Notes: generated from the letters alone by a model not told the origin. A DNA stretch of 64,000 nt from an uncultured Candidatus Peribacteria bacterium (GCA_964383675.1 CAYLHX010000003.1:2412-66411), one strand, 5' to 3'; positions 12,968 through 60,463 are shown, numbered from the stretch's first letter. Made by a program: numbers and translations.

Positions 12968-14482
12968 ATGAAAAAACAGTTAAGCTTTTGGTTAACAATA
13001 ATATTCTTTTTGATAGCCGTAACCGGTACCTCGCTGGCGCTTGACACTTCGAGCTGGTTTGAATATAACGGCCTTTCAACCACCCACTCTTATTCCGTAA
13101 AATTCCCCACCGACTGGAAAGTAAAAACCTTTGGTGATGATCTGCAGGGCTTCAGCCCAAAAGATGAAAACGAGGCGGTGTTTTTAACGATTCAGGAATT
13201 CGAGGGGAAAACCTATACTCAAGCCATTAACTCCTATCTTGTCGGCAACAACAAGCTGGTGAACGTGGATGACAAGATCTTTTCAACCAACTCTGATATG
13301 CTGGTTAAAGAGGCGGCTTACCATAATTCCGACGAAGGAAGGGATTTTGCGATTACTTTTATTAAGCGGGGTAGTTTGATTGTAGCTATCACCAACCCCA
13401 ACTTGGATGGCAATAGCGATTACCCCGTACCGTCAGAACATAATGAAATGGTGAAGGAGATTTTTAATTCTTTCCGCTTCACCGATAACTGGCATCAATA
13501 CATTGATTTTCAGGAAAAATACACTTTTGTGTTTCCAAAAAGTTTAAATTTGAACAGTCTGAGCGATGGTGTTGAACTCGTTGATGCCAAACAGCTAAAT
13601 AGTACAATTTTTTCGCTTATTCACTATCCCGGCACTAAAATTTCCGAGGTGGCCGAAGAGGCTGAAGGTTATAGTGAAGAGTTAACTGAGGAGGCCAATA
13701 TTCTCTTCCATGGTTTTAGCAAAGCCATCCGTGCGACCTATTATGACGAAGAGGCCGAAAAGGAATTAAATCGAATTTTTGTTGAACAAAACGGCAATAG
13801 CTACGGTATGACCGACATCAATATCGCCACCAACTTTCCACATCTGGACTACTATGATCAATATATAATTGAGATCCTGGAAAGCTTTGAGTTCTTTGAT
13901 ATTTCGGGAAACTACAGTAGTTATCTCTACTTCCCGGACGTTCGTGACGATCACGAAAATGCCCAGTCCATTAATTTTCTTACCAGCCAGAAAGTTGTCG
14001 CGGGTTATCCGGACGGCACCTTTAAGCCTGATGGAGAAATCAATCGCGCCGAATTAACCAAAATGATTGTGGCATCCGAACTTACACCCGATGCCAAGAA
14101 ATATAAGGACTGTTTTCCCGATGTGAAAAATGAGTGGTTCGCACCTTTTGTCTGTTATGCCAAGGAGCAGGGCTGGGTCGCCGGCTATCCCGATGGCACT
14201 TTTAAACCTGAACAAAGCGTGAATCGCGCCGAGGCTTTGAAAATCATTTTCGAGGTGAGCTTTAACGGAAAAAATATTGACCAGAAAGCAAAAAACACCC
14301 TTCCACTGGATGTTGATACCGATGACTGGTACGCCAGCTACTTCATCTTTGGCGATAACAATAAACTGCTGGATAAACAGCACATTACCACCGATAAAGA
14401 CGGCTATTTTTACCATCCTTCCAAGAACATAACTCGAAAAGAGGTAGCCGAAACCATCTACCGTAGCATCATCTTCAACTAG
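12968..14482 (+). CDS. Secreted SLH-domain surface protein (SLH repeats at the C-terminus)
   Basis: A signal peptide is followed by three C-terminal SLH-like repeats (FPDVRDDHENAQSINFLTSQKVVAGYPDGTFKPDGEINRAELTKMIV; FPDVKNEWFAPFVCYAKEQGWVAGYPDGTFKPEQSVNRAEALKII). Confidence 0.8.
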   Translation: MKKQLSFWLTIIFFLIAVTGTSLALDTSSWFEYNGLSTTHSYSVKFPTDWKVKTFGDDLQGFSPKDENEAVFLTIQEFEGKTYTQAINSYLVGNNKLVNVDDKIFSTNSDMLVKEAAYHNSDEGRDFAITFIKRGSLIVAITNPNLDGNSDYPVPSEHNEMVKEIFNSFRFTDNWHQYIDFQEKYTFVFPKSLNLNSLSDGVELVDAKQLNSTIFSLIHYPGTKISEVAEEAEGYSEELTEEANILFHGFSKAIRATYYDEEAEKELNRIFVEQNGNSYGMTDINIATNFPHLDYYDQYIIEILESFEFFDISGNYSSYLYFPDVRDDHENAQSINFLTSQKVVAGYPDGTFKPDGEINRAELTKMIVASELTPDAKKYKDCFPDVKNEWFAPFVCYAKEQGWVAGYPDGTFKPEQSVNRAEALKIIFEVSFNGKNIDQKAKNTLPLDVDTDDWYASYFIFGDNNKLLDKQHITTDKDGYFYHPSKNITRKEVAETIYRSIIFN

Positions 14483-19292: not shown

Positions 19293-20621
19293 TTAAAATG
19301 CGCTGGTCTTGCCCTCTTTCTTGTCCAGAATCACATCGGCGGCACGTTCATATTTGAAAGTATAGTTGAGAGCTTCACTATAATAGTAGTCAACCGGTCC
19401 GGTGCCAACACCAATTGTATCTGTTTCGATAATAACGCTATCCGGCAGTTTATCAATCATCTCCATACCTTTTCCTTCCATCAGAATGTTGGCAAAAATC
19501 TCACTCTTTAATGTCTCATAATCATCCCCAGCATCAGTAACTGTGTCCTCGCTGTATTCAAAAGTTGAAAGCATCGCCTTAATAACTTGTTGATTCAGAT
19601 AGGCCAATCCGCCATTGCCAAATTCGGTGTAGATGGCCAAAACTTTACCGCTATCCATATATAGGTACCAATCTACGATTCTTTGTTCCGGATAAAGTAC
19701 CTCCATTGCCGCCAATCCCTCCAAATCAAATTCGGTGTATTTGGCATTTGGGAAAGCGAGCTTCAAATTGGCAAAATATTGCGTGGAATTCAAACCTCCC
19801 TTGTTCTCATCCAAGACCACCTTTACGGTCGCACCGTTGGGATAACTTCTCCAGGGCGAAAACTGATAAAGCGCCTCATCATAGCTATAGAAAGTCACCT
19901 CCTTACCGTTTTCTTCTACGCTCCAGCTGCTATCATCATAGCGAATTTTGAAGGGTAGATTTTTGCTGGCATATTCAGGCCAGTTTAAATGCAGAGGAAA
20001 GGGCTCCTCGGTTTCCTGCACAATCAACATTCTATAAATGACTTCTGCAAAAGCACCGCGGGTCATGTTATCTTCGGCGTGCAGTTTGCCGTCATCATGT
20101 GAGAAGACAATGTTATTGTCGCGAGCGAAAAGAGCATGTGGCGCATACCACTCGTCTTTGTTCACATCCATAAAGACCTTTTGTTCAACAGTGCTTGGTA
20201 GGTCAACCTTGCCGGCCAACACCACCATCTTTAAAGTCTCGGCCAGATTGACAGTAGCACCGGGTTTAAAAGTACCATCTGGGTAACCGCTTAGCACACC
20301 GGCTTTTTGGCCCGACATCACAAAATCAAAAAACCACTCTCCTTGAGGAACATCTGGAAATATCTCTTCAGCATCCTCCACCTTTTCAACGCCAAAAGCT
20401 CCAACTATTATCTTTATAGCCTCGGCACGGTTGACCGGATCTTCCGGTTTGAAAGTTCCATCGGGATAACCATTGATAATATCCAGATCATCCAGATATT
20501 CCACGGCCTCATAATTCAGATGGTCCTCGCCGACATCGGGGTAAGAGGCAGCAAAAACACCTGTAGTGGAAAGAAAAATCAAGAGAAATGAGGGAGCGAT
20601 TAGGCTCAATATTTTTTTCAT
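19293..20621 (-). CDS. Secreted SLH-domain surface protein (SLH repeats at the N-terminus)
   Basis: A signal peptide is followed by three SLH repeats (YPDVGEDHLNYEAVEYLDDLDIINGYPDGTFKPEDPVNRAEAIKII; FPDVPQGEWFFDFVMSGQKAGVLSGYPDGTFKPGATVNLAETLKMV). Confidence 0.8.
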   Translation of the reverse strand: MKKILSLIAPSFLLIFLSTTGVFAASYPDVGEDHLNYEAVEYLDDLDIINGYPDGTFKPEDPVNRAEAIKIIVGAFGVEKVEDAEEIFPDVPQGEWFFDFVMSGQKAGVLSGYPDGTFKPGATVNLAETLKMVVLAGKVDLPSTVEQKVFMDVNKDEWYAPHALFARDNNIVFSHDDGKLHAEDNMTRGAFAEVIYRMLIVQETEEPFPLHLNWPEYASKNLPFKIRYDDSSWSVEENGKEVTFYSYDEALYQFSPWRSYPNGATVKVVLDENKGGLNSTQYFANLKLAFPNAKYTEFDLEGLAAMEVLYPEQRIVDWYLYMDSGKVLAIYTEFGNGGLAYLNQQVIKAMLSTFEYSEDTVTDAGDDYETLKSEIFANILMEGKGMEMIDKLPDSVIIETDTIGVGTGPVDYYYSEALNYTFKYERAADVILDKKEGKTSAF

Positions 20622-48442: not shown

Positions 48443-49876
48443 TTATTCAACCAAATCTAAAAATTGATCAAGTTTGCTTTGAACACTTGCCAAATCCGCC
48501 TCGTTAACAGTTCTCTCTTCTGTTACCGAATCCAAAGTACGATCCAGCCAATCCAGATAATATTCATAATTTTCCATAGTCGGATTACCGAAAATCATAT
48601 CGTCTTCCGGCGCATTCAGCCATAAATCCAAAGCGTACTCCAGATCTTCCAGCTCCTCTTGAGGAGTACCGGCTTCCTTAGCCTCCAGAATTATTTTTTT
48701 ATCACCATTTGGATTCTCCAAGTTATCCTGGTCCAGTGGTGCACCATTATCACATATTACCCCCTGCCCCTGATAAGATCCTAAAAAGCCCCAATATTCC
48801 TGATCCATCAAAACAAATTCCCAGATCGGCGCCCAGTTATTGTCTAATTCTGGATTTGCGGGAAAGTCTAAGGAGAAATCAAGTTCACTGATATAATAAC
48901 ACATTTCCTCATCCATCTCTCCCTCTCCTTCAAAGTCAAAAGTGGCAGTAATTTGTTCCACCTCAAACAAGATATAGTCAAGTTTACTGAGCAACTCTTC
49001 ACTACAGTCTCCGCTCAAAATGCAAGTAATGCTGGAAGTGTAATAATAGGTGAAAGTATCACCAGAATACAAGAAAGTAAGGGGCATTCCTTGCAGTGAC
49101 GGGTCACCGATGTCTTCGGTCAAGATCTGTAGAATTGTAAGAACTCGATCATGATCAAAATTAGACGATAATATGGTTGTTGCCACTAGGGCATTATTAT
49201 TTGGGTCAAAATCCCAATTGATATCGTTCATAGCGGCATCAATTGTATCAAAGGTGACGGTCAAGCTTGAGCGTGGGCCAAGATAATCGGCAAGCTCACC
49301 TTGCTGATCCTTTAGAACGCGGGTTATAAGATCGGCCATTTGATTTCTCCTCAAATTACCATCGAAGCTCGTCACATCCATGGGAATGTAATTTTCCGCG
49401 GATGCCGCATTTATAATACCGCGATACCAAATCTCTTCATCTTCCTCATACTCTATGCCAAAAACCTCTAAAACTATTTTCACAGCTTCAACAATATTAA
49501 CCGGATTGGCCGGTCTGAAAGAACCATCGGCGTAACCATCCACATAGCCCTCAGACTTAGCATAACAAACATATTTGGTAAACCAAGCTCCGGCAGGGAC
49601 ATCACTGAAACAGCTCTGGTTTTGGAAAGGTTCCAAAACCTCTTCTTCAATTCCAACCGCCTCAAAAACAATCTTTAGCATCTCTGCGCGGTTTACTTCA
49701 TTATCAGGGCGGTAAGTTCCATCTGCGTAACCGTTTACTATGCCCGTCTCTTGAAGAAATTCGATTGCCTTTCTGTAAAGTTCGGAATCGTCAACATCGT
49801 TAAAGTCGGCAAAGGCCGTGGCATTAAGAGCTAAAATGAGGCCTAAGAAAATTATTAATGACTTCAAGATTTTCAT
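48443..49876 (-). CDS. Secreted SLH-domain surface protein (SLH repeats at the N-terminus)
   Basis: A signal peptide is followed by the SLH repeats FNDVDDSELYRKAIEFLQETGIVNGYADGTYRPDNEVNRAEMLKIV and FSDVPAGAWFTKYVCYAKSEGYVDGYADGSFRPANPVNIVEAVKIV. Confidence 0.8.
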   Translation of the reverse strand: MKILKSLIIFLGLILALNATAFADFNDVDDSELYRKAIEFLQETGIVNGYADGTYRPDNEVNRAEMLKIVFEAVGIEEEVLEPFQNQSCFSDVPAGAWFTKYVCYAKSEGYVDGYADGSFRPANPVNIVEAVKIVLEVFGIEYEEDEEIWYRGIINAASAENYIPMDVTSFDGNLRRNQMADLITRVLKDQQGELADYLGPRSSLTVTFDTIDAAMNDINWDFDPNNNALVATTILSSNFDHDRVLTILQILTEDIGDPSLQGMPLTFLYSGDTFTYYYTSSITCILSGDCSEELLSKLDYILFEVEQITATFDFEGEGEMDEEMCYYISELDFSLDFPANPELDNNWAPIWEFVLMDQEYWGFLGSYQGQGVICDNGAPLDQDNLENPNGDKKIILEAKEAGTPQEELEDLEYALDLWLNAPEDDMIFGNPTMENYEYYLDWLDRTLDSVTEERTVNEADLASVQSKLDQFLDLVE

Positions 49877-50087
49877 AAATGTTGATGGTTAAATTAGTGA
49901 AAACTACACAACTTTAGCATACTGTTTAAGATTTTAGAAATATGGCTTGCATAAGGTGTAAAATGCCGCTCACATTAGCAATGCATCACAGTTCGAAATA
50001 AAAGCAACGAAATATATCAATTAATCTATTGGATTTATGCCATAAATGTCTTAAATGATAATTGCTTTTATTCTTTAAATTTTCGCA

Positions 50088-50876
50088 ATGAAAGTACTGA
50101 TGTGCAACCCTCAACATTTCGACGTAAATTATGAAATCAACGTCTGGATGGACAAACAAAAAACCGTAGATAGGGAGAAGACCATAAATCAGTATCAAAA
50201 TCTCAAAGACACTTATAAAAAACTTGGAGTTGAGGTAAAAGAAATAGAACAGGCCGAGGGCTTACCGGACATGGTATACGCCGCCAATTACGGATTTTTG
50301 CACAACAATATTTTTGTCCGCTCCAACTTTTTCCACCAAGAGCGCAGAAAGGAGGCTGAGCTTGCCGCCGAGTTTATGGCAAAATTAGGTTACGAAGTTG
50401 TTCCTCTGGCTGAAGAGCTTTACTTTGAAGGCCAGGGAGATCTCTTCCGCTGTAACGATCAATTTTTCTGCGGCTATGGTTTTCGCACCAAACTGGAAAC
50501 CATCAAGGAGCTGGAAAAAATCTTCAGTGAACCGGTACACGCTTTAAAACTTGTAGACCCTCGCTGGTATCACCTGGATACCTGCTTTTTGCCGCTCGGT
50601 AATAAAAGGGTTATGATTGCCCCCGAGGCCTTTGATCAGGAGTCTCTTCAAATAATCAAAAACAATTTTGATCTCGTGATAGAAACAAACGATCCAACCG
50701 ATATTGCCGGCTTTGCCTGTAACTCCATGGTTATTGGCGACAAAGTCATCACTTACCGTATGTCGGAAAACACCAAGAAAACACTTTCTGAACTCGGCTT
50801 TGAAGTGATTGAGGTTGATATGTCCGAATTCATGAAAGGCGGAGGCAGCGTTAGATGCTTAACCATGGACTTGTGA
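50088..50876 (+). CDS. Guanidino-group-modifying enzyme superfamily protein (amidinotransferase / DDAH / arginine-deiminase-like)
   Basis: MCNPQHFDVNYEINVWMD, EGQGDLF, WYHLDTCF and the C-terminal nucleophile motif GGGSVRCLTMDL. Confidence 0.75.
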   Translation: MKVLMCNPQHFDVNYEINVWMDKQKTVDREKTINQYQNLKDTYKKLGVEVKEIEQAEGLPDMVYAANYGFLHNNIFVRSNFFHQERRKEAELAAEFMAKLGYEVVPLAEELYFEGQGDLFRCNDQFFCGYGFRTKLETIKELEKIFSEPVHALKLVDPRWYHLDTCFLPLGNKRVMIAPEAFDQESLQIIKNNFDLVIETNDPTDIAGFACNSMVIGDKVITYRMSENTKKTLSELGFEVIEVDMSEFMKGGGSVRCLTMDL

Positions 50877-50879
50877 TAA

Positions 50880-53255
50880 ATGAAAAAAGACCTAAATCTT
50901 ACAGGTAAAACACTCCTGTTTGTAAACTCCGGCGGTAAAAAGAAGAAGTTTACACTCGAAAAAGCCAAAAAACTTGGTGCCAATATCGTTCTACTCAATA
51001 AAACGCTCGATGTCTCCAAAAATTTGGTGAATCATTTCATTGAGGCGGACAATTACAATCATGGAGAGGTAATCGAAAAGCTGCACTTCTTTCTTAAACA
51101 ACATCCGGAACTGCAATTTGATGGCGCCATTACCTTCTGGGAAGATGACGTGCCACTTTTGGCGCGAATTTGCGATGAGTTTAATCTTCCCGGCAATAAT
51201 TACGATACAGCGATAAAAACCAGAAATAAGTATGAGATGCGCAAGCGTCTTAAAGAAACCGGCTTGGGCAATCCCAAGTTCGCCCTGGTTAAAACCCCCA
51301 AAGATCTTCAAGTGGCAGTTAACGAAGTGGGCTTTCCTGCTGTAATGAAGCCCGTTTGGGGGTCAGACAGTGAGTTTGTGGTACTGGTAAAGAATGAAGA
51401 AGAGGCCGCCAATACGCTTAACTATCTGCTCAAAAACTGTACCGAACAATTTAATGCAATTTTCAAGTATAACGACGGAGCTTTTTTGTTTGAAGAATAT
51501 ATGGATGGCATGGAGGTTAGCGTGGAGGGATTTTCTCAGTTTGGTATCCCCAATGTTATTGGTATTCACGAGAAGCAACCCATCAAACCACCATACTTTA
51601 TCGAATATGGTGATATCGCCCCCGCTCGTATCGAGTCCAAGATGGAACAGGAGGTAATTAAGTTGGCGGAGTCGGCCCTGATTGCACTGGGAGTGCAAAA
51701 CAGCCTTTCCCATATTGAGATTAAAATCACCTCCGAGGGGCCCAAAATCGTGGAAGTGGCCTCACGCATGGGCGGTGACGACATCTACTTCAATGTGAAG
51801 CATGTCTGGGGCGTGGACATGGTCGAGGCTGGCGTGCAGGTTGCCACCAATATGCCGGTTAACTTTAAGCGCAAAGAACCCAAGGACAAAGTTATCTGCC
51901 GCTATTTCATTCCCGAGTTTTCCGGAATTGTTACCAAGATTCAAAATCTGAAAGAGGTGCAGAAAATGAAGAATGTTTTGCAGGTGACAGTAAACAAGAG
52001 CATCGGCGATCCGGTTTTAGTACCGCCGGCCGGTTTTGATAATACCGGTTGGGCCATTGTGAAGGGGAAAACTTATCAGGAAGCCGAGACATTAATGAAC
52101 AAGTTGTTGGAAAAAATCACTATTAACATCACCAAGTTTCACAAAGACTCTTCGCTCGGTAAGACCACTCGCAAACCCGATCTTGCCTCAGCTTCCAGAG
52201 TAAGAAGTCAGATCTTGCGCGCCTCAAAAATCGAGAAGATTCGCTCCATTAACCTACAGGCCTTGCAAGAATTTCATATTGGTATCGTAACCAATGAACC
52301 GTTAAGTGGTGCCGAGTCCGCCGCGATTCTAACGAATCGCGGCTACAAAGTAAGCCTTTTCGACATTAGCCAGTCGCCGCTTCCGATTAGAAAGATTCAA
52401 GAGGCCAACCTGGACTTTGTGCTTAATCTCGCGCAAGCGGTTTACGATTCACCACTGCTTAAACCCTATATCGCCGGTCTCTTCGATATCCTTCAGCTGC
52501 CTTACACCGGTTCCGGTTCCTCAACCTTGGCCTTGGCCGCCGACAAAATTAAAACCAAAAAACTACTGGATTATCATGGGATTCCCACACCCGCTTGGGA
52601 TTACGTCGAGGAAATGGAGGATGAGATTGATCCAAACCTAAAATTCCCCCTTATTGTAAAACCGGCCAACTCCGATAACGCGTTCGGCATCAACAACGAA
52701 TCGGTTGTCACCAATGAGCGCGACCTAAAAAAGCAACTTGAAATAATCGTTGAAGAACTCAAAAGACCGGCCTTGATTGAAGAGTATATCGAGGGAGATG
52801 AGTTTGATGTCTGTATTTTGGGTAATGACGAAGATGCCGAAATTCTGCCGCTGATTCGCTCTATTTTTGACCGCATGCCCAAACCTAATTGGCATATCTA
52901 TCATTCCGCATTAAAAAATCAGGAAAACGAGGAGATCCTGAAAAGCATTCGTCTGGAAAAACCCGCCAAAATCCCCAAGAAACTGGATTCACTGATTAGC
53001 GAAATGTCTCTGGATGTCTTCAATATCTTTGATTGTCGCGATTACCTGAAGATGGAGATGCGCGTGGACAAAAACGGTAATCCATTCGTATTGGAACTTA
53101 ACCCCAATCCGCCGATTCACCGGGACGATTTCCTGCCAATGGCGGCAAAGCTGGCCGGTTACAGCTATGAGGATCTTTTGGAAGAGATAATTATCCTGGC
53201 AATTCAGCGTTACAAAGATCATCCGCCCTTTTATCACTTAAGCTCAATTAAGTAA
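50880..53255 (+). CDS. Fusion of two ATP-grasp ligase modules (an amino-acid-ligase-like N-terminal half and a D-Ala-D-Ala-ligase-like C-terminal half)
   Basis: N-terminal half: FPAVMKPVWGSDSEFVVLV, FLFEEYMDGMEVSVEGF and SHIEIKITSEGPKIVEVASRMGGD. C-terminal half: LPYTGSGSSTLALAADKIKTKKLL, FPLIVKPANSDNAFGI, LIEEYIEGDEFDVCILG and FVLELNPNP. Confidence 0.8.
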   Translation: MKKDLNLTGKTLLFVNSGGKKKKFTLEKAKKLGANIVLLNKTLDVSKNLVNHFIEADNYNHGEVIEKLHFFLKQHPELQFDGAITFWEDDVPLLARICDEFNLPGNNYDTAIKTRNKYEMRKRLKETGLGNPKFALVKTPKDLQVAVNEVGFPAVMKPVWGSDSEFVVLVKNEEEAANTLNYLLKNCTEQFNAIFKYNDGAFLFEEYMDGMEVSVEGFSQFGIPNVIGIHEKQPIKPPYFIEYGDIAPARIESKMEQEVIKLAESALIALGVQNSLSHIEIKITSEGPKIVEVASRMGGDDIYFNVKHVWGVDMVEAGVQVATNMPVNFKRKEPKDKVICRYFIPEFSGIVTKIQNLKEVQKMKNVLQVTVNKSIGDPVLVPPAGFDNTGWAIVKGKTYQEAETLMNKLLEKITINITKFHKDSSLGKTTRKPDLASASRVRSQILRASKIEKIRSINLQALQEFHIGIVTNEPLSGAESAAILTNRGYKVSLFDISQSPLPIRKIQEANLDFVLNLAQAVYDSPLLKPYIAGLFDILQLPYTGSGSSTLALAADKIKTKKLLDYHGIPTPAWDYVEEMEDEIDPNLKFPLIVKPANSDNAFGINNESVVTNERDLKKQLEIIVEELKRPALIEEYIEGDEFDVCILGNDEDAEILPLIRSIFDRMPKPNWHIYHSALKNQENEEILKSIRLEKPAKIPKKLDSLISEMSLDVFNIFDCRDYLKMEMRVDKNGNPFVLELNPNPPIHRDDFLPMAAKLAGYSYEDLLEEIIILAIQRYKDHPPFYHLSSIK

Positions 53256-54544
53256 TGAGCAAAGAGATTTTAATCGTCACCGGCTCAGACTATTCAGCTC
53301 AGGTATATGAAGCTTTTCATCAAGTAAAACAGCTCGGACATAAACTGTACCTTTTAAGTGATGGCTCTTTTGAGGCGCGACCGAACATTTTTAAAGAACA
53401 TTTTAAGTACGATCTCAGAAAAACCAAAGAAGTCTTGCAGTATATGACAAAGCAGCCCTTTAAGTTTGACGCTGTAACTATCAAAACTTCGGAGTGGCTT
53501 ACTCCTTTGGTAGCTCTGCTTGCCAAACAATATGACTGCCTCGGCAATCAACCTCAAGTGGCTTTCAACTGTCGAAGCAAGTATCACATGCGCAAAAAAT
53601 TGGCCGAACACGGTGTACCAATTCCCGCCTTTGAGCTTTGCCAAAACTATGAACAACTTCTGGCGGCCATTAAGAAGATCGGTCTGCCTTGTGTTGCCAA
53701 ACCGGTAGGAGGCAATGCCAGCTACGGCACCTTTTTAATACGGCACGAGGAAGATTTAGCCCAGCTGGAGGAAAATTATAAAAAGTCCATTCAGTACCTT
53801 CAAAATAAGGCGCTGCAAGATGATGTATTTGCCTTTTCAGAAGAAGAACTCGAACTTTTTGAAATTGAAGAGAAGGTGAACATGGTTACCGATTATCTGG
53901 TGGAGGAATTTATGGCCGGACCGGAAATAAGTGTGGATGCCCTGGTACAAAACGGACAGGTCTCTATTTTGGGAGTTGCCGATCAGGTACGCATGGAGCC
54001 GCCCTATTTCGTTCAATTGGCAGAATACATGCCTTATCTATGTTCTCCGGAAGAAGAAGCAAAAATAGAGGAGTTAATTAAAAAAACAATCTCAGCCTTG
54101 GACATTCAAAACTCCGCAACTCATACTGAAATAATTTTCACTCCAGAGGGGCCGAAAATAGTAGAAATCGCCTGCCGCATCGGCGGCGATAATATTCACG
54201 ACGCAGTCTATCAAACCAGCGGCTACAATCTGATGTTTGAAAATATAATGATTGCCTTGGGCGAAAATCGTCAACATCGCTCACTGAAACAATCTCACAC
54301 CGCCATGAAATATCTCCTGCCGGAGAAAGAGGGCAAAATTCAACAAATCCAAGTACCCCCAGAGCTTTATCTGGACCACAATATCACCGAAATAGAAATT
54401 ACCGCTCAAAAAGGTGATCTGGTTGCCCCTCCACCCAAAAGTTTTGATTTCCTGGGCTATATCTCGGTTAAAGGTAATACCAGAGAAGAGGCCGAAGCCA
54501 AACTATCAGATACACTTTCCAAAATAGACATTCAAATTGAATAA
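53255..54544 (+). CDS. ATP-grasp ligase
   Basis: LPCVAKPVGGNASYGTFLI, YLVEEFMAGPEISVDALV and THTEIIFTPEGPKIVEIACRIGGDNI. The start overlaps the upstream stop (TAATG). Confidence 0.8.
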   Translation: MSKEILIVTGSDYSAQVYEAFHQVKQLGHKLYLLSDGSFEARPNIFKEHFKYDLRKTKEVLQYMTKQPFKFDAVTIKTSEWLTPLVALLAKQYDCLGNQPQVAFNCRSKYHMRKKLAEHGVPIPAFELCQNYEQLLAAIKKIGLPCVAKPVGGNASYGTFLIRHEEDLAQLEENYKKSIQYLQNKALQDDVFAFSEEELELFEIEEKVNMVTDYLVEEFMAGPEISVDALVQNGQVSILGVADQVRMEPPYFVQLAEYMPYLCSPEEEAKIEELIKKTISALDIQNSATHTEIIFTPEGPKIVEIACRIGGDNIHDAVYQTSGYNLMFENIMIALGENRQHRSLKQSHTAMKYLLPEKEGKIQQIQVPPELYLDHNITEIEITAQKGDLVAPPPKSFDFLGYISVKGNTREEAEAKLSDTLSKIDIQIE

Positions 54545-54545
54545 A

Positions 54546-55790
54546 ATGAAGATAGTGGGAATAGAAAGCCTGGAATTACTCTTTTCAAAGCTTAAGAACA
54601 GCTGTTATTTTGCCACCTCTGAAAGTAGTCCGGCCTACGACTTTTTCAAAACCAATATCTCTCCAAACCACCTACTTACGCTCAAACAATCCGAAAATTT
54701 CGCCCTTCACCTAAATGATGACAAAGCCATTGAAAAATCAGATTTGAATCAGAGGGTAATGGGTGAAGGCATAGACTCCTTTTGGATTTCACACAGGACT
54801 TCCAGAAAACTTGTCGATTGGGAACAAAACTCGCGGATCAAACTCTTAGCGAATCAGCTCAAACACCAGACCAGATTTGAAAATAAAATAGTGTTTGACG
54901 ATCTACTAAGGCAAAATAAGCTACCCGTTCCTCAGGGGAAAGTCCTCAGTGGTACAAGCGATCTTCAAAACTTGGAAAGTTTTCCGGCAGTGCTCCAGAT
55001 TCCCGAAAGCGATGGTTCCACCGGCACCTTTTTTGTCTCCGACCGACGGGAAATCGAACAACTTCTGAAACTTAAGAAACTTTCTTTTCCCTGCCTTTTT
55101 CGCCAATACATCGACGGAATCCCTCTTGGCATAACCGCCCTTATAGGCAAAGAAAACCTGATTTTTTCCTCTCTAAGACTGCAATTATTTTTCCTCAACA
55201 ACAAGGGCGGTAACGACTATTATGGTATCCAATGGCTGCCTTCTACACTATTTAGCAAAGCTTTCTACGAAAAGCTAAGTTCAAGCTTAAAGAAAATCTG
55301 CACAATTTTCAGAGACCAAGGTTTTTCCGGAGTCGCCAACTTTGACCTAATTGCCAAGGACAACGAATTCTATTTTATCGAATGTAACCCGCGACTCTCT
55401 CTCTCTTCCGCGCAATTAACCAATCAAAAAGAACTTTTTCACGGTCTAGATTTTACTGAGGAATTTGCCCAGGTTATTAATGAAGGGGATTCTAGCTCAA
55501 ATAAACCAACAATTCCACAAACCGATTATCAGGGCGCTACAATTGATTTGGACTTTGTTAAAAACAAATGCGGAAAAGAGAGAATTTTCAAAACCGGTAC
55601 CTATAGTTTTACAAACCACGATTTCATTTATGAATCCAATAAGTTGGATGACTTTGCTACCGATAAAATTTTTGCCTACACCAACTGCCTTATTACTAAC
55701 TTCCCGGTTGCAACCATTCAAAATGACCGCTTTGCATTATCAAAGTACGGACAAGATATAATTGCATCCATCCAAGCTAACACCAACTAA
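54546..55790 (+). CDS. Divergent ATP-grasp-like ligase
   Basis: FPAVLQIPESDGSTGTFFV, LFRQYIDGIPLGITAL and GVANFDLIAKDNEFYFIECNPRLS. The track start at 54537 is a TTG. The ATG at 54546 lies 1 nt after the upstream stop. Confidence 0.55.
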   Translation: MKIVGIESLELLFSKLKNSCYFATSESSPAYDFFKTNISPNHLLTLKQSENFALHLNDDKAIEKSDLNQRVMGEGIDSFWISHRTSRKLVDWEQNSRIKLLANQLKHQTRFENKIVFDDLLRQNKLPVPQGKVLSGTSDLQNLESFPAVLQIPESDGSTGTFFVSDRREIEQLLKLKKLSFPCLFRQYIDGIPLGITALIGKENLIFSSLRLQLFFLNNKGGNDYYGIQWLPSTLFSKAFYEKLSSSLKKICTIFRDQGFSGVANFDLIAKDNEFYFIECNPRLSLSSAQLTNQKELFHGLDFTEEFAQVINEGDSSSNKPTIPQTDYQGATIDLDFVKNKCGKERIFKTGTYSFTNHDFIYESNKLDDFATDKIFAYTNCLITNFPVATIQNDRFALSKYGQDIIASIQANTN

Positions 55791-55792
55791 AT

Positions 55793-57070
55793 ATGCTCGA
55801 AAGCAAGTTCTCCAAAATTTCCCAAATTAAGTTTCATTTATTGCAAGTCGCAGAACAAGAATCAACACCTGCCTACATTTATGATCCAGCGGAGCTAAAA
55901 AATAATTTGCAGCTTTTCAAAAATGCCTTTAACGAGCAGGGAGTTGAGGCCAAAATCTTTTACGCCATCAAAAGCAATTATTATGCTCAACTTTTAAAGG
56001 ATGTGGTGGAATTTGGGGAAGGATTGGATGCCTCCAGTCAACGCGAGCTTAAGCTGGCACTTGAAGCGGGAGCCAAAAAAATTATTTATACCGGTCCGGC
56101 AAAAGAAGAAAAAGATTTTGAATTAATTTTAGAACACACCGAAAAAGTAAGTGTTAATTTGGAAAGTTTTCGCGAATTGAAACTGCTTGGAGAAATGGCT
56201 GAAAAATCCGGTAAGGTTGTCCGTTGTGCCTTAAGGGTAACCACCTCAAGCCAGAAAGGCTGGACCAAATTTGGCCTTCCGCTCGAACGATTTAAAGATT
56301 TCTACCTTGAGACCTTAAACTATCCGGCTTTAAACTTTTGCGGATTACACTTTCACATCAGTATGAACAAAACTCCAGATAAGTATGTCTCTACGCTGAA
56401 CGAAATTGCTGCTTATTTCAAACAAAATTTCACGCCACAAGAACTCCAGAAATTTGAATACATTGATATGGGTGGAGGAATCTATCCACAGCCCTTTGAA
56501 GGTATTTACTCCTGGAATCCGGATCAGGTTATGCAGTTTTTTAGCAATGAAACTCATTTTGAGGACATCATCGCCGATAAGTGGCAACCACGATATCTAC
56601 CTCTGGAAGTTGAACCCATCGAAAAATTTGCCGAAGCAATCTGCGGGACTTGGCTCAAAACAATCAAACCTATTTTGCCGAATGCAGAACTATACTGCGA
56701 GCCGGGACGTTTCATCTGCCACAGCGCCATGCATATCCTATTAAAGTTGGTGGAAATCAAAAACGAAAACATGGGCATCACCGATGGTGGCAACAACATT
56801 GTCGGCTGGGAAAAACATCAATTTTTCAACTACACGCCACTCTTCAATCTTTCTCAATTCGATTTGGAGAACGAACGCCCATTTGTATCATATGGCTCAC
56901 TCTGCACGCCGGACGACATCTGGGGCTACTATCTCTACACCAAAGGCCAACCCAAGCCCGGAGACATAATCTTAATGCCTTTCCAGGGGGCTTACACCTA
57001 TACCTTGGCCCAGGAGTTCATCAAAGACATCCCAAAAGTAGTGAATCTTTCAGCGGATCAGGTTAGTTAA
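55793..57070 (+). CDS. PLP-dependent decarboxylase, fold type III (ornithine / diaminopimelate / arginine decarboxylase family)
   Basis: PLP-lysine context IFYAIKSNY, Gly loop DMGGGIY, CEPGRFI and GSLCTPDD. Confidence 0.85.
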   Translation: MLESKFSKISQIKFHLLQVAEQESTPAYIYDPAELKNNLQLFKNAFNEQGVEAKIFYAIKSNYYAQLLKDVVEFGEGLDASSQRELKLALEAGAKKIIYTGPAKEEKDFELILEHTEKVSVNLESFRELKLLGEMAEKSGKVVRCALRVTTSSQKGWTKFGLPLERFKDFYLETLNYPALNFCGLHFHISMNKTPDKYVSTLNEIAAYFKQNFTPQELQKFEYIDMGGGIYPQPFEGIYSWNPDQVMQFFSNETHFEDIIADKWQPRYLPLEVEPIEKFAEAICGTWLKTIKPILPNAELYCEPGRFICHSAMHILLKLVEIKNENMGITDGGNNIVGWEKHQFFNYTPLFNLSQFDLENERPFVSYGSLCTPDDIWGYYLYTKGQPKPGDIILMPFQGAYTYTLAQEFIKDIPKVVNLSADQVS

Positions 57071-57673: not shown

Positions 57674-60463
57674 ATGAATAACAAAAACATCTATTATCAG
57701 TTAACTGTCGATGAGACGCTTGAAAGCCTTGATAGCAAAGCCGATGGTTTAAACGATAAAGATGCCAGGGAGCGCCTTAAGCTGTATGGCAAAAATAAGC
57801 TAAAGATTCAAAACAAAACCCCTCTGATCTTTAGGCTGTTAAAACAGGTTAAAGACTTAATGATTATTATCCTTATAGTCTCCGGCCTTTTCTCAATTTA
57901 TCTGCAGGAGTATCGCGATGCCATTATCGTTTACTCGATTGTGGTTATCAACGCGCTGATCGGATTTTTTCAGGAGTATAAGGCGGAGAAGATGATGGCT
58001 TCGCTCAAGGTTATGGTTGAGGCCAAGGCTAAGGTTATCAGGATGGGTAAAGTGATTGAGATTGATGGCGCTGACCTGGTTCCGGGAGATATAGTGGTTA
58101 TTGAAGAAGGGGATGCCGTGCCGGCCGATCTGAGAGTTTTGCAGGACAATAATCTTTCCACCAACGACTTTGCGTTAACCGGTGAATCCAATCCTACCAA
58201 AAAGTTCACGCATGAAATAAAAGGTGCCGTACCTTTAGGGGACCGCAACAATATAGCCTTCATGGGAACCACAGTGGCCACCGGAAATGGTCAGGGAATT
58301 GTGATCGCTACCGGAATGGAAACCGAAATAGGCCGTATTGCCCATTTGAGCCAGGTAAGTACGGATGGACTTTCTCCTCTGCAGAAAGAATTAAATACCG
58401 TAGCCAAGAAACTCTCTTTTGCGGCTTTAACCATCGCCTCTTTGCTTTTCATTGTGGCCATTCTACTGGATTTCGGTCTTAAAGAGGCGGTCTTATTTGC
58501 TTTAGGCATGGCCGTTTCTGTTGTTCCTCAGGGACTTCCGGCTCAGGTATCGATTGCTCTTTCGCTGGCTGCGGGGCGTCTGGCCAGGGAAAAAGCAATC
58601 ATTAAAAAGCTCTCGGCCGTGGAAACCTTAGGTGCCACCCACATCATCTGCACCGACAAAACCGGTACCCTGACCAAAAATGAGATGACCGTGCAGAAGC
58701 TCACGATTGGGTACCAAGAATTTACGATTAGCGGATTGGGTTATGAACCAAAAGGAGAAATTCTCTACAACAACAAACCGCTTCAAGCTGCTGAGTTGGA
58801 AAAATACAAACTAGTTTTCGAAACCGGCTCTTTGGCTTCCAACGCCAAGATCAATGCTCCGGACGAAGAGCACCACAGTTGGTATGGCATAGGAGACCCC
58901 ACCGAGGCGGCTCTAATAACTCTGGCCCTCAAGGCCGGCGTGGATACCGAAAAGCTAAGTAAAGAATGTACTGAACTTAAGGAATTCACCTTTGATGCCG
59001 TGCGCAAAAGGATGTCTTCGATTCGTCAGTGCGACGGTAAAATCATAGTTTTTGTAAAGGGTGCGCCGGAAAGAATCATGGAAAATTGCAACTCTTATTA
59101 TGATGATGGTGAAATAAAACCGCTTACTGAGGAATTTAAAAAATTCATCGAAGAGACCGACAAAACCAATGCCGGAGAGGCTATGCGCAATTTGGCCTTA
59201 GCCTATAAAGAAATTGATCAATATGACCCTGAGGCCAAGATGGAAGACATCGAAAAGGATTTAATTTTCCTGGGCGTGGTTTCCATGATCGATCCCCTGC
59301 GTGAAGAGGTAGAGGAGGCTTTGCAAATGGCTTTAAGAGCCAATATCAGAGTGATTATCATAACCGGAGACTATCCTCTAACCGCGGAGGCCATTGCCAG
59401 AAAAATAGATCTGGCCAAGTATAGTCACCATGATAAGGAAATTACCGTAATTACAGGAGCCGAATTACACAAAATCTCAGACATTGAGTTATTGCACCAG
59501 TTGATTCACAGCAACTTGATTTTTGCCCGCACCTCACCTGACGACAAGCTGCGGATAGTTGATTTGTTAAAGAAGGCGGGCGAAATAGTCGCGGTTACCG
59601 GCGACGGGGTGAATGATTCGCCCGCCCTCAAAAAAGCCGATATAGGAGTTGCCATGGGCAAAACGGGAACGGAGGTGGCAAAGGAATCAGCAGAAATAAT
59701 CCTCCTCGACGACAGCTTTGCCACCCTGGTAACAGCCATTAAAGAGGGCAGAACGGTTTTTCAAAATCTCAAAAAAAACATCCTCTCCTCCCTCACCTCC
59801 AACGGCGCCGAACTCTTTGCCGTACTCTTAAGCCTTGCTTTCGGTATTTTATACGACTTTCCTCTGGCTATTCTGGTGGTGCAGATCCTAGCCATCGATT
59901 TGATAGGAGAAATGTTGCCGCTTACCTTTCTTACCTGGGATCCACCACAAACCGAAATCATGACCGAGGCCCCCCGCAATCCCAATCAGCACATCTTAAA
60001 CCGCAAGCGGCTGATAGACATTATCTGGAGTGGTTTTTTAATGGGTGGGCTGGGCTACCTCAATTTCATACTATTCTTCCAAAGAGCCGAGATTGACCCG
60101 GCCGGTCTTTCCACCGATACAATCACCTACATGCAGGCCACAACCCTAACCTACGTTAGCATCGTCTTCACTCAATGGATGAACATCCTCTCCCGCCGCG
60201 CCGGCGAAACAAATTCAGCTTTCACTTCCTATCTTTTTTCCAATAAGCGTCTCCTCGTCGGTTACGCCATTTCTCTCTTCCTACTGCTAAACATCTCCTA
60301 TAATCCCTGGATTAGCCATTTTTTCCGTACAGCTCCGCTCTCGCTGATAGATTGGCTCTTTGCCGCAACAGCAGCGCTAAGCTTCTTCCTCATAAGAGAA
60401 GGCTACAAATTTGTTTCCAGATGGCAACTCTCCCAGGCATCCAATCCTCCTTCCAAGTTGTAA
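57674..60463 (+). CDS. P-type cation-transporting ATPase (P2, Ca2+/Mg2+-ATPase-like)
   Basis: TGES, the phosphorylation site ICTDKTGTLT, KGAPE, the hinge TGDGVNDSPALKKADIGVAMG, and about 10 TM helices. Confidence 0.9.
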   Translation: MNNKNIYYQLTVDETLESLDSKADGLNDKDARERLKLYGKNKLKIQNKTPLIFRLLKQVKDLMIIILIVSGLFSIYLQEYRDAIIVYSIVVINALIGFFQEYKAEKMMASLKVMVEAKAKVIRMGKVIEIDGADLVPGDIVVIEEGDAVPADLRVLQDNNLSTNDFALTGESNPTKKFTHEIKGAVPLGDRNNIAFMGTTVATGNGQGIVIATGMETEIGRIAHLSQVSTDGLSPLQKELNTVAKKLSFAALTIASLLFIVAILLDFGLKEAVLFALGMAVSVVPQGLPAQVSIALSLAAGRLAREKAIIKKLSAVETLGATHIICTDKTGTLTKNEMTVQKLTIGYQEFTISGLGYEPKGEILYNNKPLQAAELEKYKLVFETGSLASNAKINAPDEEHHSWYGIGDPTEAALITLALKAGVDTEKLSKECTELKEFTFDAVRKRMSSIRQCDGKIIVFVKGAPERIMENCNSYYDDGEIKPLTEEFKKFIEETDKTNAGEAMRNLALAYKEIDQYDPEAKMEDIEKDLIFLGVVSMIDPLREEVEEALQMALRANIRVIIITGDYPLTAEAIARKIDLAKYSHHDKEITVITGAELHKISDIELLHQLIHSNLIFARTSPDDKLRIVDLLKKAGEIVAVTGDGVNDSPALKKADIGVAMGKTGTEVAKESAEIILLDDSFATLVTAIKEGRTVFQNLKKNILSSLTSNGAELFAVLLSLAFGILYDFPLAILVVQILAIDLIGEMLPLTFLTWDPPQTEIMTEAPRNPNQHILNRKRLIDIIWSGFLMGGLGYLNFILFFQRAEIDPAGLSTDTITYMQATTLTYVSIVFTQWMNILSRRAGETNSAFTSYLFSNKRLLVGYAISLFLLLNISYNPWISHFFRTAPLSLIDWLFAATAALSFFLIREGYKFVSRWQLSQASNPPSKL

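Follow-up and report, generated by a model that had tools for sequence, protein, structure and literature searches.

A gene-cluster family of candidate phyla radiation bacteria and DPANN archaea that may assemble a small peptide with ATP-grasp ligases

Ribosome-independent amide bonds are formed by ATP-grasp ligases in several small gene clusters, among them those for pheganomycin (PGM1), ketomemicin, and phaseolotoxin. These pathways use true amidinotransferases, and PGM1 takes a ribosomal peptide as its substrate. Other ligases act on proteins: RimK modifies ribosomal protein S6, and tubulin-tyrosine ligases modify tubulin. Among the fold III decarboxylases that depend on pyridoxal phosphate (PLP), the members of "clade 2" other than diaminopimelate decarboxylase (DAPDC) act on side-chain-conjugated amino acids, with citryl-Dap, citryl-Orn, O-citryl-Ser, and gamma-Glu-S-carrier protein as substrates (Li et al., PMC7857480), and BtrJ/BtrK and PvsA/PvsE are precedents for pairing an ATP-dependent ligase with a conjugate decarboxylase of this type (PMC7857480, PMC5577590). 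Here, we describe a five-gene operon (g1 to g5; positions 50088-57070, about 7 kb) in a 64,000-nucleotide stretch of DNA from an uncultured Candidatus Peribacteria bacterium (GCA_964383675.1, CAYLHX010000003.1:2412-66411), which we refer to as the window. Our tentative reading, plausible though far from assured, is that g1 to g5 act as a unit in which ATP-grasp enzymes assemble a short peptide or pseudopeptide without a ribosome or nonribosomal peptide synthetase (NRPS), after which g5 decarboxylates a residue attached through its side chain.

The five open reading frames (ORFs), read with the standard genetic code, lie on the plus strand and abut one another in a single run. Their junctions read TGA-TAA-ATG (g1/g2, 3-nt gap), a TAATG overlap (g2/g3), TAA-A-ATG (g3/g4, 1-nt gap), and TAA-AT-ATG (g4/g5, 2-nt gap), exactly as an earlier sequence-only reading of the window had described them. 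With intergenic gaps of -1 to 3 nt, g1 to g5 are predicted to form one transcription unit. The motifs quoted in that reading were also found (GGGSVRC at residue 251 of g1; AIKSN, EPGR, and CTPDD at residues 58, 303, and 371 of g5), and most of its domain assignments held: Pfam and NCBIfam models identified a DDAH/ADI fold in g1, a double ATP-grasp in g2, an ATP-grasp in both g3 and g4, and a PLP decarboxylase in g5. The amidinotransferase alternative in its description of g1 (amidinotransferase/DDAH fold) did not hold, and where it had claimed five ATP-grasp domains we counted four, a pair in g2 and single domains in g3 and g4. Catalytic or ATP/Mg motifs were intact in the alignments of all four ATP-grasp domains and of g5. 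None of the five proteins attained the curated NCBIfam cut-off for Ddl, LysA, the Pur enzymes, or any named ligase.

To place the operon in a wider context, we scanned one genome per GTDB species, with taxon labels as deposited, for the pattern of g2. At least 593 g2 loci were found in these species-representative genomes. Among their sources were many classes of Patescibacteria, DPANN archaea, Gottesman-, Magasanik-, Falkow-, Komeili-, Woese-, Roizman-, Wildermuth-, and Saccharibacteria and Paceibacterota, as well as Elusimicrobia, Bdellovibrionota, and metagenome-assembled genomes (MAGs) labeled Gammaproteobacteria. Full-length homologs of g2 with 45 to 69% identity occurred in Peregrinibacteria and Gracilibacteria and in Nano-, Woese-, and Micrarchaeota and Diapherotrites, and the nearest named homologs of g2 and g5 belonged to MAGs of Peregrinibacteria, Peribacteraceae, and Gracilibacteria. 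In a rough neighbor-joining tree, the g2 proteins of DPANN archaea formed a single clade that was 44 to 52% identical to those of the candidate phyla radiation (CPR), while g2 of the window clustered with Peregrinibacteria, Gracilibacteria, and one Bdellovibrionota MAG. The sequence-only reading had regarded such an operon as unexpected in a minimal genome. Its core instead proved typical of minimal genomes of CPR, DPANN, and similar groups, and it has the look of a function shared across a lineage, not of an isolated cluster for a secondary metabolite.

The neighbors of g2 were conserved as well. On four independent contigs (L005, L006, L088, and L089), the order g2-g3-g4-g5 was kept at 55 to 70% identity. 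When the five window proteins were searched by tblastn against 87 g2 loci, g4 and g5 came after g2 in approximately 13 to 16 loci of several classes, including Komeili-, Falkow-, Roizman-, and Saccharibacteria and Bdellovibrionales. The two genes also traveled together: 12 of the 13 g4-bearing loci also had g5, which in most cases directly followed g4. A nanoarchaeon locus carried g2, an ATP-grasp gene, and g5. Additional LAL genes (for L-amino-acid ligase) were confined in the same search to the clade of the window and one Bdellovibrionales MAG. Judged by this conservation of gene order and sequence, the true unit is g2-g3-g4-g5. It belongs to a gene-cluster family that is widespread in CPR bacteria and DPANN archaea and has the approximately 800-aa g2 as its signature gene. 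Searches of the literature on ATP-grasp enzymes in CPR, DPANN, Patescibacteria, or Saccharibacteria, on Ddl in DPANN, and on protein-family surveys returned no description of this system, and we found no curated family for it. Public databases label its homologs "D-alanine-D-alanine ligase," "diaminopimelate decarboxylase," or "alanine racemase," and this annotation is misleading.

The g2 protein combines two ligases. Its N-terminal half (approximately residues 1 to 430) is an LAL-type ATP-grasp with an LAL_C2 domain, and its C-terminal half (approximately residues 476 to 775) is a Ddl-like ATP-grasp (Pfam, NCBIfam). Compared with the PDB, a profile of the g2 family matched the LAL BL00235 (3vot, E = 8e-51) and BacD (4e-36) in the N half and Ddl of B. 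anthracis (3r23, 2e-35) in the C half. The Pfam models LAL_C2 (49 bits; cut-off, 29.4) and Dala_Dala_lig_C (101 bits, in the C half) were recovered. Scores for named enzymes stayed below their cut-offs, with 77 bits for BacD (cut-off, 850), 41 bits for DdaF (840), and 175.6 and 132.1 bits for the Ddl models PRK01372 (243) and TIGR01205 (245.65), respectively. Both g2 and g3 matched RimK-family models with scores far under those for LALs and matched cyanophycin synthetase models with 26 to 57 bits (cut-offs, 850 to 877). For the N half of g2 and for g3, one would expect LAL-like chemistry, that is, ADP-forming synthesis of dipeptides from unprotected amino acids by way of an acyl-phosphate.

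To examine the Ddl-like half at the level of residues, we aligned 15 homologs with E. coli DdlB, whose sequence is identical to that of PDB entry 2dln. The ATP/Mg residues K97, K144, E180, E187, E270, and N272 (DdlB numbering) were kept in 15 of 15 C halves, and D257 was changed conservatively to Glu. The pocket was different. We take the D-Ala-binding residues of DdlB (2DLN) to be the E15-S150-Y216 triad together with H63, R255, S281, and L282. In the C halves of g2, we found S150 replaced by N, Y216 by W, N, S, or T, H63 by Y, N, or P, and L282 by F or C, as well as E68 by L. Position 281 was Asp in 13 of the 15 sequences, R255 was K in the clade of the window, and the region of E15 had no alignment with g2. 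Because the residues of the D-Ala pocket are replaced and the Ddl cut-offs are missed, the C half of g2 is, as judged from its sequence, not a D-Ala-D-Ala ligase. In our interpretation, Asp at position 281 would be incompatible with the carboxylate of D-Ala2 bound in the manner of Ddl, and such an acidic side chain in the pocket for the nucleophile would suit an incoming substrate with a positive charge.

The stand-alone ligase g3 carries the Pfam domains ATP-grasp_4 and LAL_C2 (55.6 bits; cut-off, 29.4) and scored 47 bits against the BacD model (cut-off, 850). With 30% identity to residues 25 to 417 of g2 (E = 3e-55), it is by sequence comparison a paralog of the g2 N half. Its orthologs (60 to 63% identity) come after g2 in the four operons of conserved order, and the number of LAL paralogs per operon ranges from one to three, which fits a peptide whose length or composition depends on lineage.

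The remaining ATP-grasp, g4, is divergent. It reached 36 bits with Pfam ATP-grasp_3, its top NCBIfam match was a protein similar to carbamoyl phosphate synthetase (CPS; "CPS-like protein," PRK12767, 33 bits), and the PurK, PurT, and PurD models gave 28 to 34 bits (cut-offs, 288 to 502). Its family profile matched the CPS large chain in the PDB (6e-10). An AlphaFold2 (AF2) model with a pLDDT of 94.1 had PurK, biotin carboxylase, PurD, and PylC as nearest folds (TM score, 0.55 to 0.64; 10 to 16% identity). These results place g4 provisionally in the structural branch of PurK, PurD, biotin carboxylase, and CPS, and the profile and fold searches go no finer. The Mg/phosphate ligands E279, N281, and R283 were invariant in family alignments, as was Gln151 (VLQIP), which sits where the Lys of a "VKP" motif is usual. 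The family is small, with 445 relatives (E <= 1e-3) among 1.84 billion representative proteins.

The last gene, g5, encodes a decarboxylase of the Orn/Arg/DAP type (Pfam Orn_Arg_deC_N, 99 bits). Its score against the NCBIfam LysA model TIGR01048 was 139.9 bits (cut-off, 297.9), with the best stretch in the N-terminal barrel (residues 13 to 230), and SpeA gave 21.7 bits. In the PDB, its matches were DAPDC (1e-20), SbnH (6knh, 1.7e-17), BtrK (3e-13), FigC/FslC (1.6e-12), and ornithine decarboxylases (ODCs; best, 6.8e-11, with eukaryote-type ODCs at 4e-8 or weaker); D-Orn/Lys decarboxylase was also among its neighbors. From this ranking of E-values, we assign g5 to the predicted alanine-racemase-fold (fold III) decarboxylases of the DAPDC/SbnH/FigC/BtrK clade and not to LysA. 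The AF2 model (pLDDT, 92.8) superimposed on DAPDC, SbnH, BtrK, FigC, and ODC structures with TM scores of 0.7 to 0.8 at 20 to 23% identity and was equidistant from DAPDC, D-Orn/Lys decarboxylase, FigC, SbnH, and L/ODC, such that the fold assigns no substrate. Across 30 homologs, Lys60, His188, GGG227-229, E303-R306, Cys371, and a GAY motif were invariant.

Two regions of g5 bear on what it may recognize. We take the distal-carboxylate-binding motif of DAPDC to be of the Arg-Pro-x-Leu-Tyr type, located after the DGG strand. At the corresponding place, assigned by eye, g5 has TDGGNNIVGWEKHQFF, with W339/E340 nearly invariant. The Cys-loop of g5 (C-T-P-D-D) is unlike those of ODC (C-D), DAPDC (C-E), and FigC (C354 ... 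H357), so a different distal group is presumably recognized. The g5 family comprised 136 proteins at E <= 1e-10, and its named relatives were from CPR-type or Bdellovibrionales MAGs and one MAG labeled "Nitrospirota."

The first gene stands apart from the others. Against Sll1336 (ArgZ) in the PDB, g1 aligned end to end with the N-domain (residues 2 to 260, approximately 42% identity, E = 2e-50), and DDAH of M. tuberculosis was also among its matches. Its motifs FEGQGD, YHLDTCF, and GGGSVRC align with FEGAGD, YHLDTCF, and GGAAKC of Sll1336, keeping the Cys, the His, and the acidic residue. Scores were below the cut-offs of NCBIfam DDAH-Mtb (251.5 bits versus 300), Arg_dihydro (221.4 versus 450), and the bifunctional ArgZ model (213 versus 1025). 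SxtG was the sole amidinotransferase match (9e-5). Given the alignment with the ArgZ N-domain, the kept motifs, and the great distance of amidinotransferases, g1 is by homology a guanidino-group hydrolase and not an amidinotransferase. The candidate reaction is most likely arginine to ornithine, with methyl-arginine or another guanidine as alternative substrates.

Guanidino chemistry had been proposed as a component of the system, and the distribution of g1 speaks against this. There was no g1 match by tblastn in the 87 related g2 loci, none in the Pfam gene tables of L088 and L089, and none in the four closest operons, and the orthologs of g1 (46 to 63% identity) were stand-alone genes in unrelated neighborhoods. 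We accordingly rejected g1 as a conserved member of the pathway; it appears to be an addition to the operon that is specific to this genome.

Taken together, these assignments suggest the following scheme. The product would be a short peptide or pseudopeptide of approximately three to five building blocks. Every ATP-grasp domain would convert a carboxylate to an acyl-phosphate, to which an amine would then be coupled. Free amino acids would be linked by alpha-peptide bonds through the action of g3 and of the N half of g2. The other half of g2, the Ddl-like one, would add a nucleophile other than D-Ala, probably a cationic one, and g4 would perform one more ligation. Then g5 would remove the alpha-carboxyl from a side-chain-attached residue of the Orn/Lys/Dap type, or from a gamma-linked Glu, to leave a peptidyl-amine, with ligation followed by decarboxylation as in SbnH, FigC/FslC, AcsE, and BtrK. 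That g5 would act on an already ligated amino acid is what its adjacency to g4 and the precedent of its clade suggest. In this genome only, g1 would hydrolyze arginine and thereby supply ornithine. What we infer from the identities of the enzymes and from related systems is the use of free amino acids, the order of steps, the side-chain linkage of a basic residue, and the part played by g1.

Several points weigh against this scheme. Specificity cannot be read from sequence for any of the five enzymes. In g4, a Gln stands in place of the phosphate-binding ATP-grasp Lys, and bicarbonate-activating enzymes are among the nearest folds of its model, such that g4 may carboxylate rather than ligate. 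The supply of ornithine by g1 is a weak inference, with linkage in a single genome. The operon also lacks any exporter, any carrier protein, and any regulator that could hint at what becomes of the product. Furthermore, among 46 loci with enough flanking sequence, g2 was alone in 16, had a GNAT gene as its sole partner in 11, and was accompanied by g4, g5, a MurL-like gene, an L-Ala-D/L-Glu epimerase (AEE) homolog, or an extra LAL in 19. The g2 product may thus be complete after two ligations, with g3 to g5 as lineage-specific elaboration. Finally, the SET and GNAT genes that neighbor g2 in other lineages fit modification of a protein equally well.

These partner genes of other lineages deserve description. 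Clustering of ORFs identified a GNAT of the Acetyltransf_6 (FemAB/CelD) type immediately after g2 in 19 loci and a 458-aa protein without a Pfam family immediately after g2 in 15 loci (L008, L012, L018, L021, L022, L027, L038, L042, L053, L057, L063, L065, L068, L069, and L070). The only consistent match of the 458-aa family was NCBIfam MurL (13 of 15 members; best E = 6e-12, far under the cut-off of 700). A PP-loop-like motif (SFGKES) occurs in its members along with a cluster of the form CxxC...C, and their profile gave marginal matches to PP-loop ATPases in the PDB (E of approximately 0.2); we found no description of MurL-like relatives outside peptidoglycan synthesis of the Xanthomonas type. 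In eight loci, often after the MurL-like gene, there was an enolase-superfamily gene nearest to the L-Ala-D/L-Glu epimerase of Thermotoga (213 bits). MurL and L-Ala-D/L-Glu epimerases of the YcjG/YkfB type epimerize the C-terminal residue of small peptides (PMC5808125, PMC8788868), and these partners in sister clusters suggest, by analogy, a peptide substrate. Genes with a SET domain (the fold of protein lysine methyltransferases), of two families, were found within 7 kb of g2 in 10 of approximately 60 loci (L010, L038, L042, L043, L045, L051, L054, L059, L070, and L072), in some cases as same-strand runs (g2-GNAT-SET in L010, g2-GNAT-SET-SET in L045, and g2-SET-MurL-like in L042). Their presence hints that an amine of the product is methylated or that the target is a protein.

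Two further observations concern the relatives of g2. A Pfam AAT gene (peptidase-C45 or acyl-CoA:6-APA acyltransferase-like) lies beside the g2-g4-g5 cluster in L021, L049, and L088, and a role as peptide-processing or acyl-transfer partner is possible. Tandem or fused pairs of Ddl-like domains, 30 to 38% identical to the C half of g2, represent another double-ligase architecture (L074, L076-L081, L084, L086, and L087) in MAGs labeled Ignavibacteriota, Bacteroidota, Planctomycetota, Deltaproteobacteria, and, in one case, "uncultured bacterium."

Could the ligases modify a protein? They might add amino acids to the C terminus or a side chain of a specific protein, with GNAT, SET, and decarboxylase enzymes altering the appendage further. 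The SET genes near g2, several of them in the same strand run, the 19 GNAT genes directly downstream, and the RimK-family matches of g2 and g3 agree with this view, and a housekeeping target would account for the very broad spread of lone g2. However, the N half of g2 and g3 are most similar to BL00235 and BacD, ligases of free amino acids with the LAL-specific C2 domain, with scores far above those of RimK-type models. No gene next to g2 is conserved as a candidate target, the operon of the window has neither a SET nor a GNAT gene, and partners of the MurL and AEE type work on small peptides (PMC5808125). We consider protein modification unlikely. Less probable again is that the operon makes parts of a cell-wall stem peptide outside the Mur ligase pathway, where four ligations would give a pentapeptide, epimerases would provide D-Glu, the DAPDC-like enzyme would convert a DAP residue to Lys, and the diamino acid would be Orn provided by g1. 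The Ddl-like domain of g2, the MurL and epimerase homologs of sister clusters, the FemAB/CelD-type GNAT, the closeness of g5 to DAP decarboxylases, the four ligase domains of the window operon, and weak matches of g2 and g4 to archaeal "pseudomurein ATP-grasp" and CPS-like models can all be brought in its favor. Yet g2 is conserved, at 44 to 52% identity, in a coherent clade of DPANN archaea that are free of murein, the D-Ala-binding residues of Ddl are replaced, and g5 is far under the LysA cut-off. Moreover, no Mur ligase, MraY/MurG, or UDP-sugar gene was present in the neighborhoods examined, and the window operon is without an epimerase.

That the ATP-grasp enzymes make, processively, a cyanophycin- or RimK-like poly-amino acid or nitrogen-rich store is very improbable. 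Here g1 would link the polymer to arginine turnover, as enzymes of the ArgZ type (structures 6juy and 6lrf are among the g1 matches) serve arginine and cyanophycin catabolism in cyanobacteria, and g2 and g3 weakly match cyanophycin synthetase and RimK models. Those cyanophycin synthetase scores are a small part of the cut-offs, however; the Mur-ligase-like M domain and a cyanophycinase are both missing (Pfam, NCBIfam), g1 is not a conserved partner, and four different ligase types with a decarboxylase better suit a defined product than a homopolymer. The least credible account is that Ddl, LysA, PurK/PurT/PurD, and an arginine-catabolic hydrolase are ordinary housekeeping enzymes that happen to be adjacent. 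The public annotation of the homologs is in line with it, and g1 is truly stand-alone elsewhere. Against it, all cut-offs are widely missed (Ddl, 175.6 of 243; LysA, 139.9 of 297.9; PurK/PurT/PurD, 28 to 34 of 288 to 502), the D-Ala pockets are replaced, and the fusion and the g2/g4/g5 order are kept across phyla and archaea. The g4 and g5 families are also small, their contig-placed members adjoin g2, and the named relatives of g5 are from the same kinds of MAGs. The sequence-only reading had named such orthology to Ddl, LysA, and Pur enzymes as the finding that would overturn it, and we found the contrary. On the strength of the scores below cut-off, the loss of D-Ala-binding residues, and the g2/g4/g5 linkage across phyla, its proposal of a ribosome-independent ligase pathway with a decarboxylation remains the best reading, shorn of the guanidino step and the fifth ligase.

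Three described types of pathway were compared with the operon and rejected. Logic of the graspetide or PGM1 type, as in ribosomally synthesized and post-translationally modified peptides, calls for a precursor-peptide gene; there is none, the gaps of the operon leave no room for one, and all ORFs of at least 80 aa in the operon span overlap g1 to g5 in other frames or on the other strand. Cyanophycin synthetase was set aside for want of the Mur-ligase-like M domain (Pfam) and for scores far under its cut-offs. A carrier-protein pathway of the LysW or BtrI type was set aside as well, since there was no small conserved ORF in any cluster examined.

CPR bacteria and DPANN archaea are characterized by what they cannot make. 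The conservation of g2 across both groups, at 40 to 50% identity, and its recurrence with further ligases, epimerase-like enzymes, and a decarboxylase, would thus point to a molecule that these organisms insist on making. In its widest form, the argument would be that one dedicated ATP-grasp pathway, with the LAL and Ddl-like double ligase as its signature, is common to CPR and DPANN and has passed between the two domains, and that a small peptidyl-amine, in some lineages composed partly of D-amino acids, is a core metabolite of ultra-small symbionts. We regard this joint claim as doubtful. Candidate roles would be redox buffering by a low-molecular-weight compound, buffering of cations or of osmotic conditions, and a part in the envelope or in interaction with the host. 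If true, the pathway would be among the few biosynthetic capacities retained by these organisms, and its product would represent a previously unknown class of primary metabolite. The identity of the product would fill a gap in the metabolic maps of approximately a quarter of microbial diversity, yield new ATP-grasp ligase specificities that are useful as biocatalysts for peptide synthesis, and correct a systematic misannotation ("D-Ala-D-Ala ligase," "DAP decarboxylase," "alanine racemase"). Because the whole operon is just 7 kb, the question is directly testable.

The surroundings of the operon are listed in Table 1. The sole sizeable noncoding gap ahead of g1 to g5 separates g1 from a divergent SLH-domain gene and is likely, as a prediction, to contain the promoter region. 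A single sigma-70-like match lies within it, at a frequency not above that in shuffled sequence, and it marks a position and not a demonstrated promoter; the scan for promoters and terminators as a whole did no better than shuffles. At the 3' end of the operon, a convergent gene with a Gmad2 domain overlaps the final codons of g5. An Rfam scan of the window returned a tRNA and nothing else. Genes for the ATPase and platform proteins of type IV pili, for LytR-CpsA-Psr, and for several proteins with SLH domains are present in the window, and metabolic genes are few. This content, like the nearest named homologs of g2 and g5, points to a CPR (Patescibacteria) genome that appears to be Peregrinibacteria-like. 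Three SLH-domain surface proteins were located, one of which is the gene divergent from the promoter region of the operon.

Shortly downstream of the operon is a gene for a P-type cation ATPase. Homologous ATPases occur within 7 kb of g2 in six more loci (L006, L022, L037, L060, L063, and L068), which span several Patescibacteria classes, and in some of them (L063 and L068) the ATPase is directly adjacent. The two may be functionally connected through the handling of cations, or their proximity may be due to chance and synteny. Elsewhere in the window, a reverse transcriptase gene (Pfam RVT_1) is flanked by ORFs of 400 and 1092 aa, both without Pfam families, and just upstream of it on its strand are two repeats that are 89% alike. 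We considered a textbook diversity-generating retroelement and rejected it, as the mismatches between repeats are not adenine specific.

Table 1. Coordinates of the operon genes and of other features in the 64,000-nt window
Feature	Position	Strand	Length	Predicted product or description
SLH-domain gene	12968-14482			SLH-domain surface protein
SLH-domain gene	19293-20621			SLH-domain surface protein
Reverse transcriptase gene	32501-34564	-	687 aa	Reverse transcriptase
Repeat	34714-34825		112 nt	Repeat upstream of reverse transcriptase
Repeat	35005-35116		112 nt	Repeat upstream of reverse transcriptase
SLH-domain gene	48443-49876			SLH-domain surface protein, divergent from operon
Intergenic region upstream of g1	49877-50087	+	211 nt	Between divergent genes; likely promoter region
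Sigma-70-like match	49935-49964			Position only
g1	50088-50876	+	262 aa	Pentein-fold guanidino-group hydrolase, ArgZ N-domain/DDAH type
g2	50880-53255	+	791 aa	Fusion of LAL-type ATP-grasp and Ddl-like ATP-grasp
g3	53255-54544	+	429 aa	Stand-alone LAL-type ATP-grasp ligase
g4	54546-55790	+	414 aa (417 aa if TTG start at 54537)	Divergent ATP-grasp
g5	55793-57070	+	425 aa	Fold III PLP-dependent decarboxylase
P-type ATPase gene	57674-60463	+	929 aa	P-type cation ATPase

Several enzymes of the operon have described counterparts from which they depart. The LALs (BL00235 of Bacillus licheniformis, BacD/YwfE of bacilysin biosynthesis, RizA, TabS, and DdaF) have in common with g3 and the N half of g2 an ATP-grasp with an N-terminal pre-domain and LAL_C2. 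Unlike them, g2 is orthologous to no named LAL and is fused to a second ligase domain, and it is found in core-like contexts of CPR and DPANN, whereas the named LALs belong to antibiotic clusters. The Ddl/VanA family has its C-terminal ATP-grasp domain and ATP/Mg residues in common with the C half of g2 and differs in the residues that bind D-Ala. ArgZ (Sll1336/Alr4995) resembles g1 in fold, in the end-to-end alignment of its N-domain, and in catalytic motifs. It is approximately 700 aa long with an ornithine-cyclodeaminase-like C-terminal domain that g1 lacks.

The conjugate decarboxylases SbnH (staphyloferrin B), FigC/FslC (rhizoferrin), AcsE/PvsE (achromobactin/vibrioferrin), BtrK (butirosin), and MccE agree with g5 in fold and in catalytic residues, and like them g5 adjoins the gene of a ligase that could make its substrate, in this case g4. 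BtrJ and PvsA, the ligases of the two precedents, are ATP-grasp enzymes. In contrast to the SbnH, FigC, AcsE, and BtrK systems, to which g5 is only 20 to 23% identical, there is no NRPS-independent siderophore synthetase, citrate chemistry, or carrier protein here. MurL, from the alternative D-Glu route of MurD2/MurL, has a distant homolog in other g2 clusters of Patescibacteria, and the YcjG/YkfB epimerases have an AEE-like one; both are absent from the window operon, and there is no MurD2 or UDP-MurNAc context. The formation of amide bonds by ATP-grasp enzymes in a small cluster is what the operon appears to have in common with the pheganomycin, ketomemicin, and phaseolotoxin clusters. The sequence-only reading had pressed the analogy with the first two further than it will go: the operon has no amidinotransferase, precursor peptide, or other enzyme of those clusters, and g1 is of the hydrolase type and not conserved with the ligases. 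All parts of the system come from known superfamilies, and the kind of pathway, in which ATP-grasp enzymes assemble amides independently of NRPS and a conjugate decarboxylase takes part, is known as well. The novelty lies in the fusion, in the families of g4 and g5, in the company of MurL-like and AEE-like genes, and most of all in how the system is distributed over CPR bacteria and DPANN archaea.

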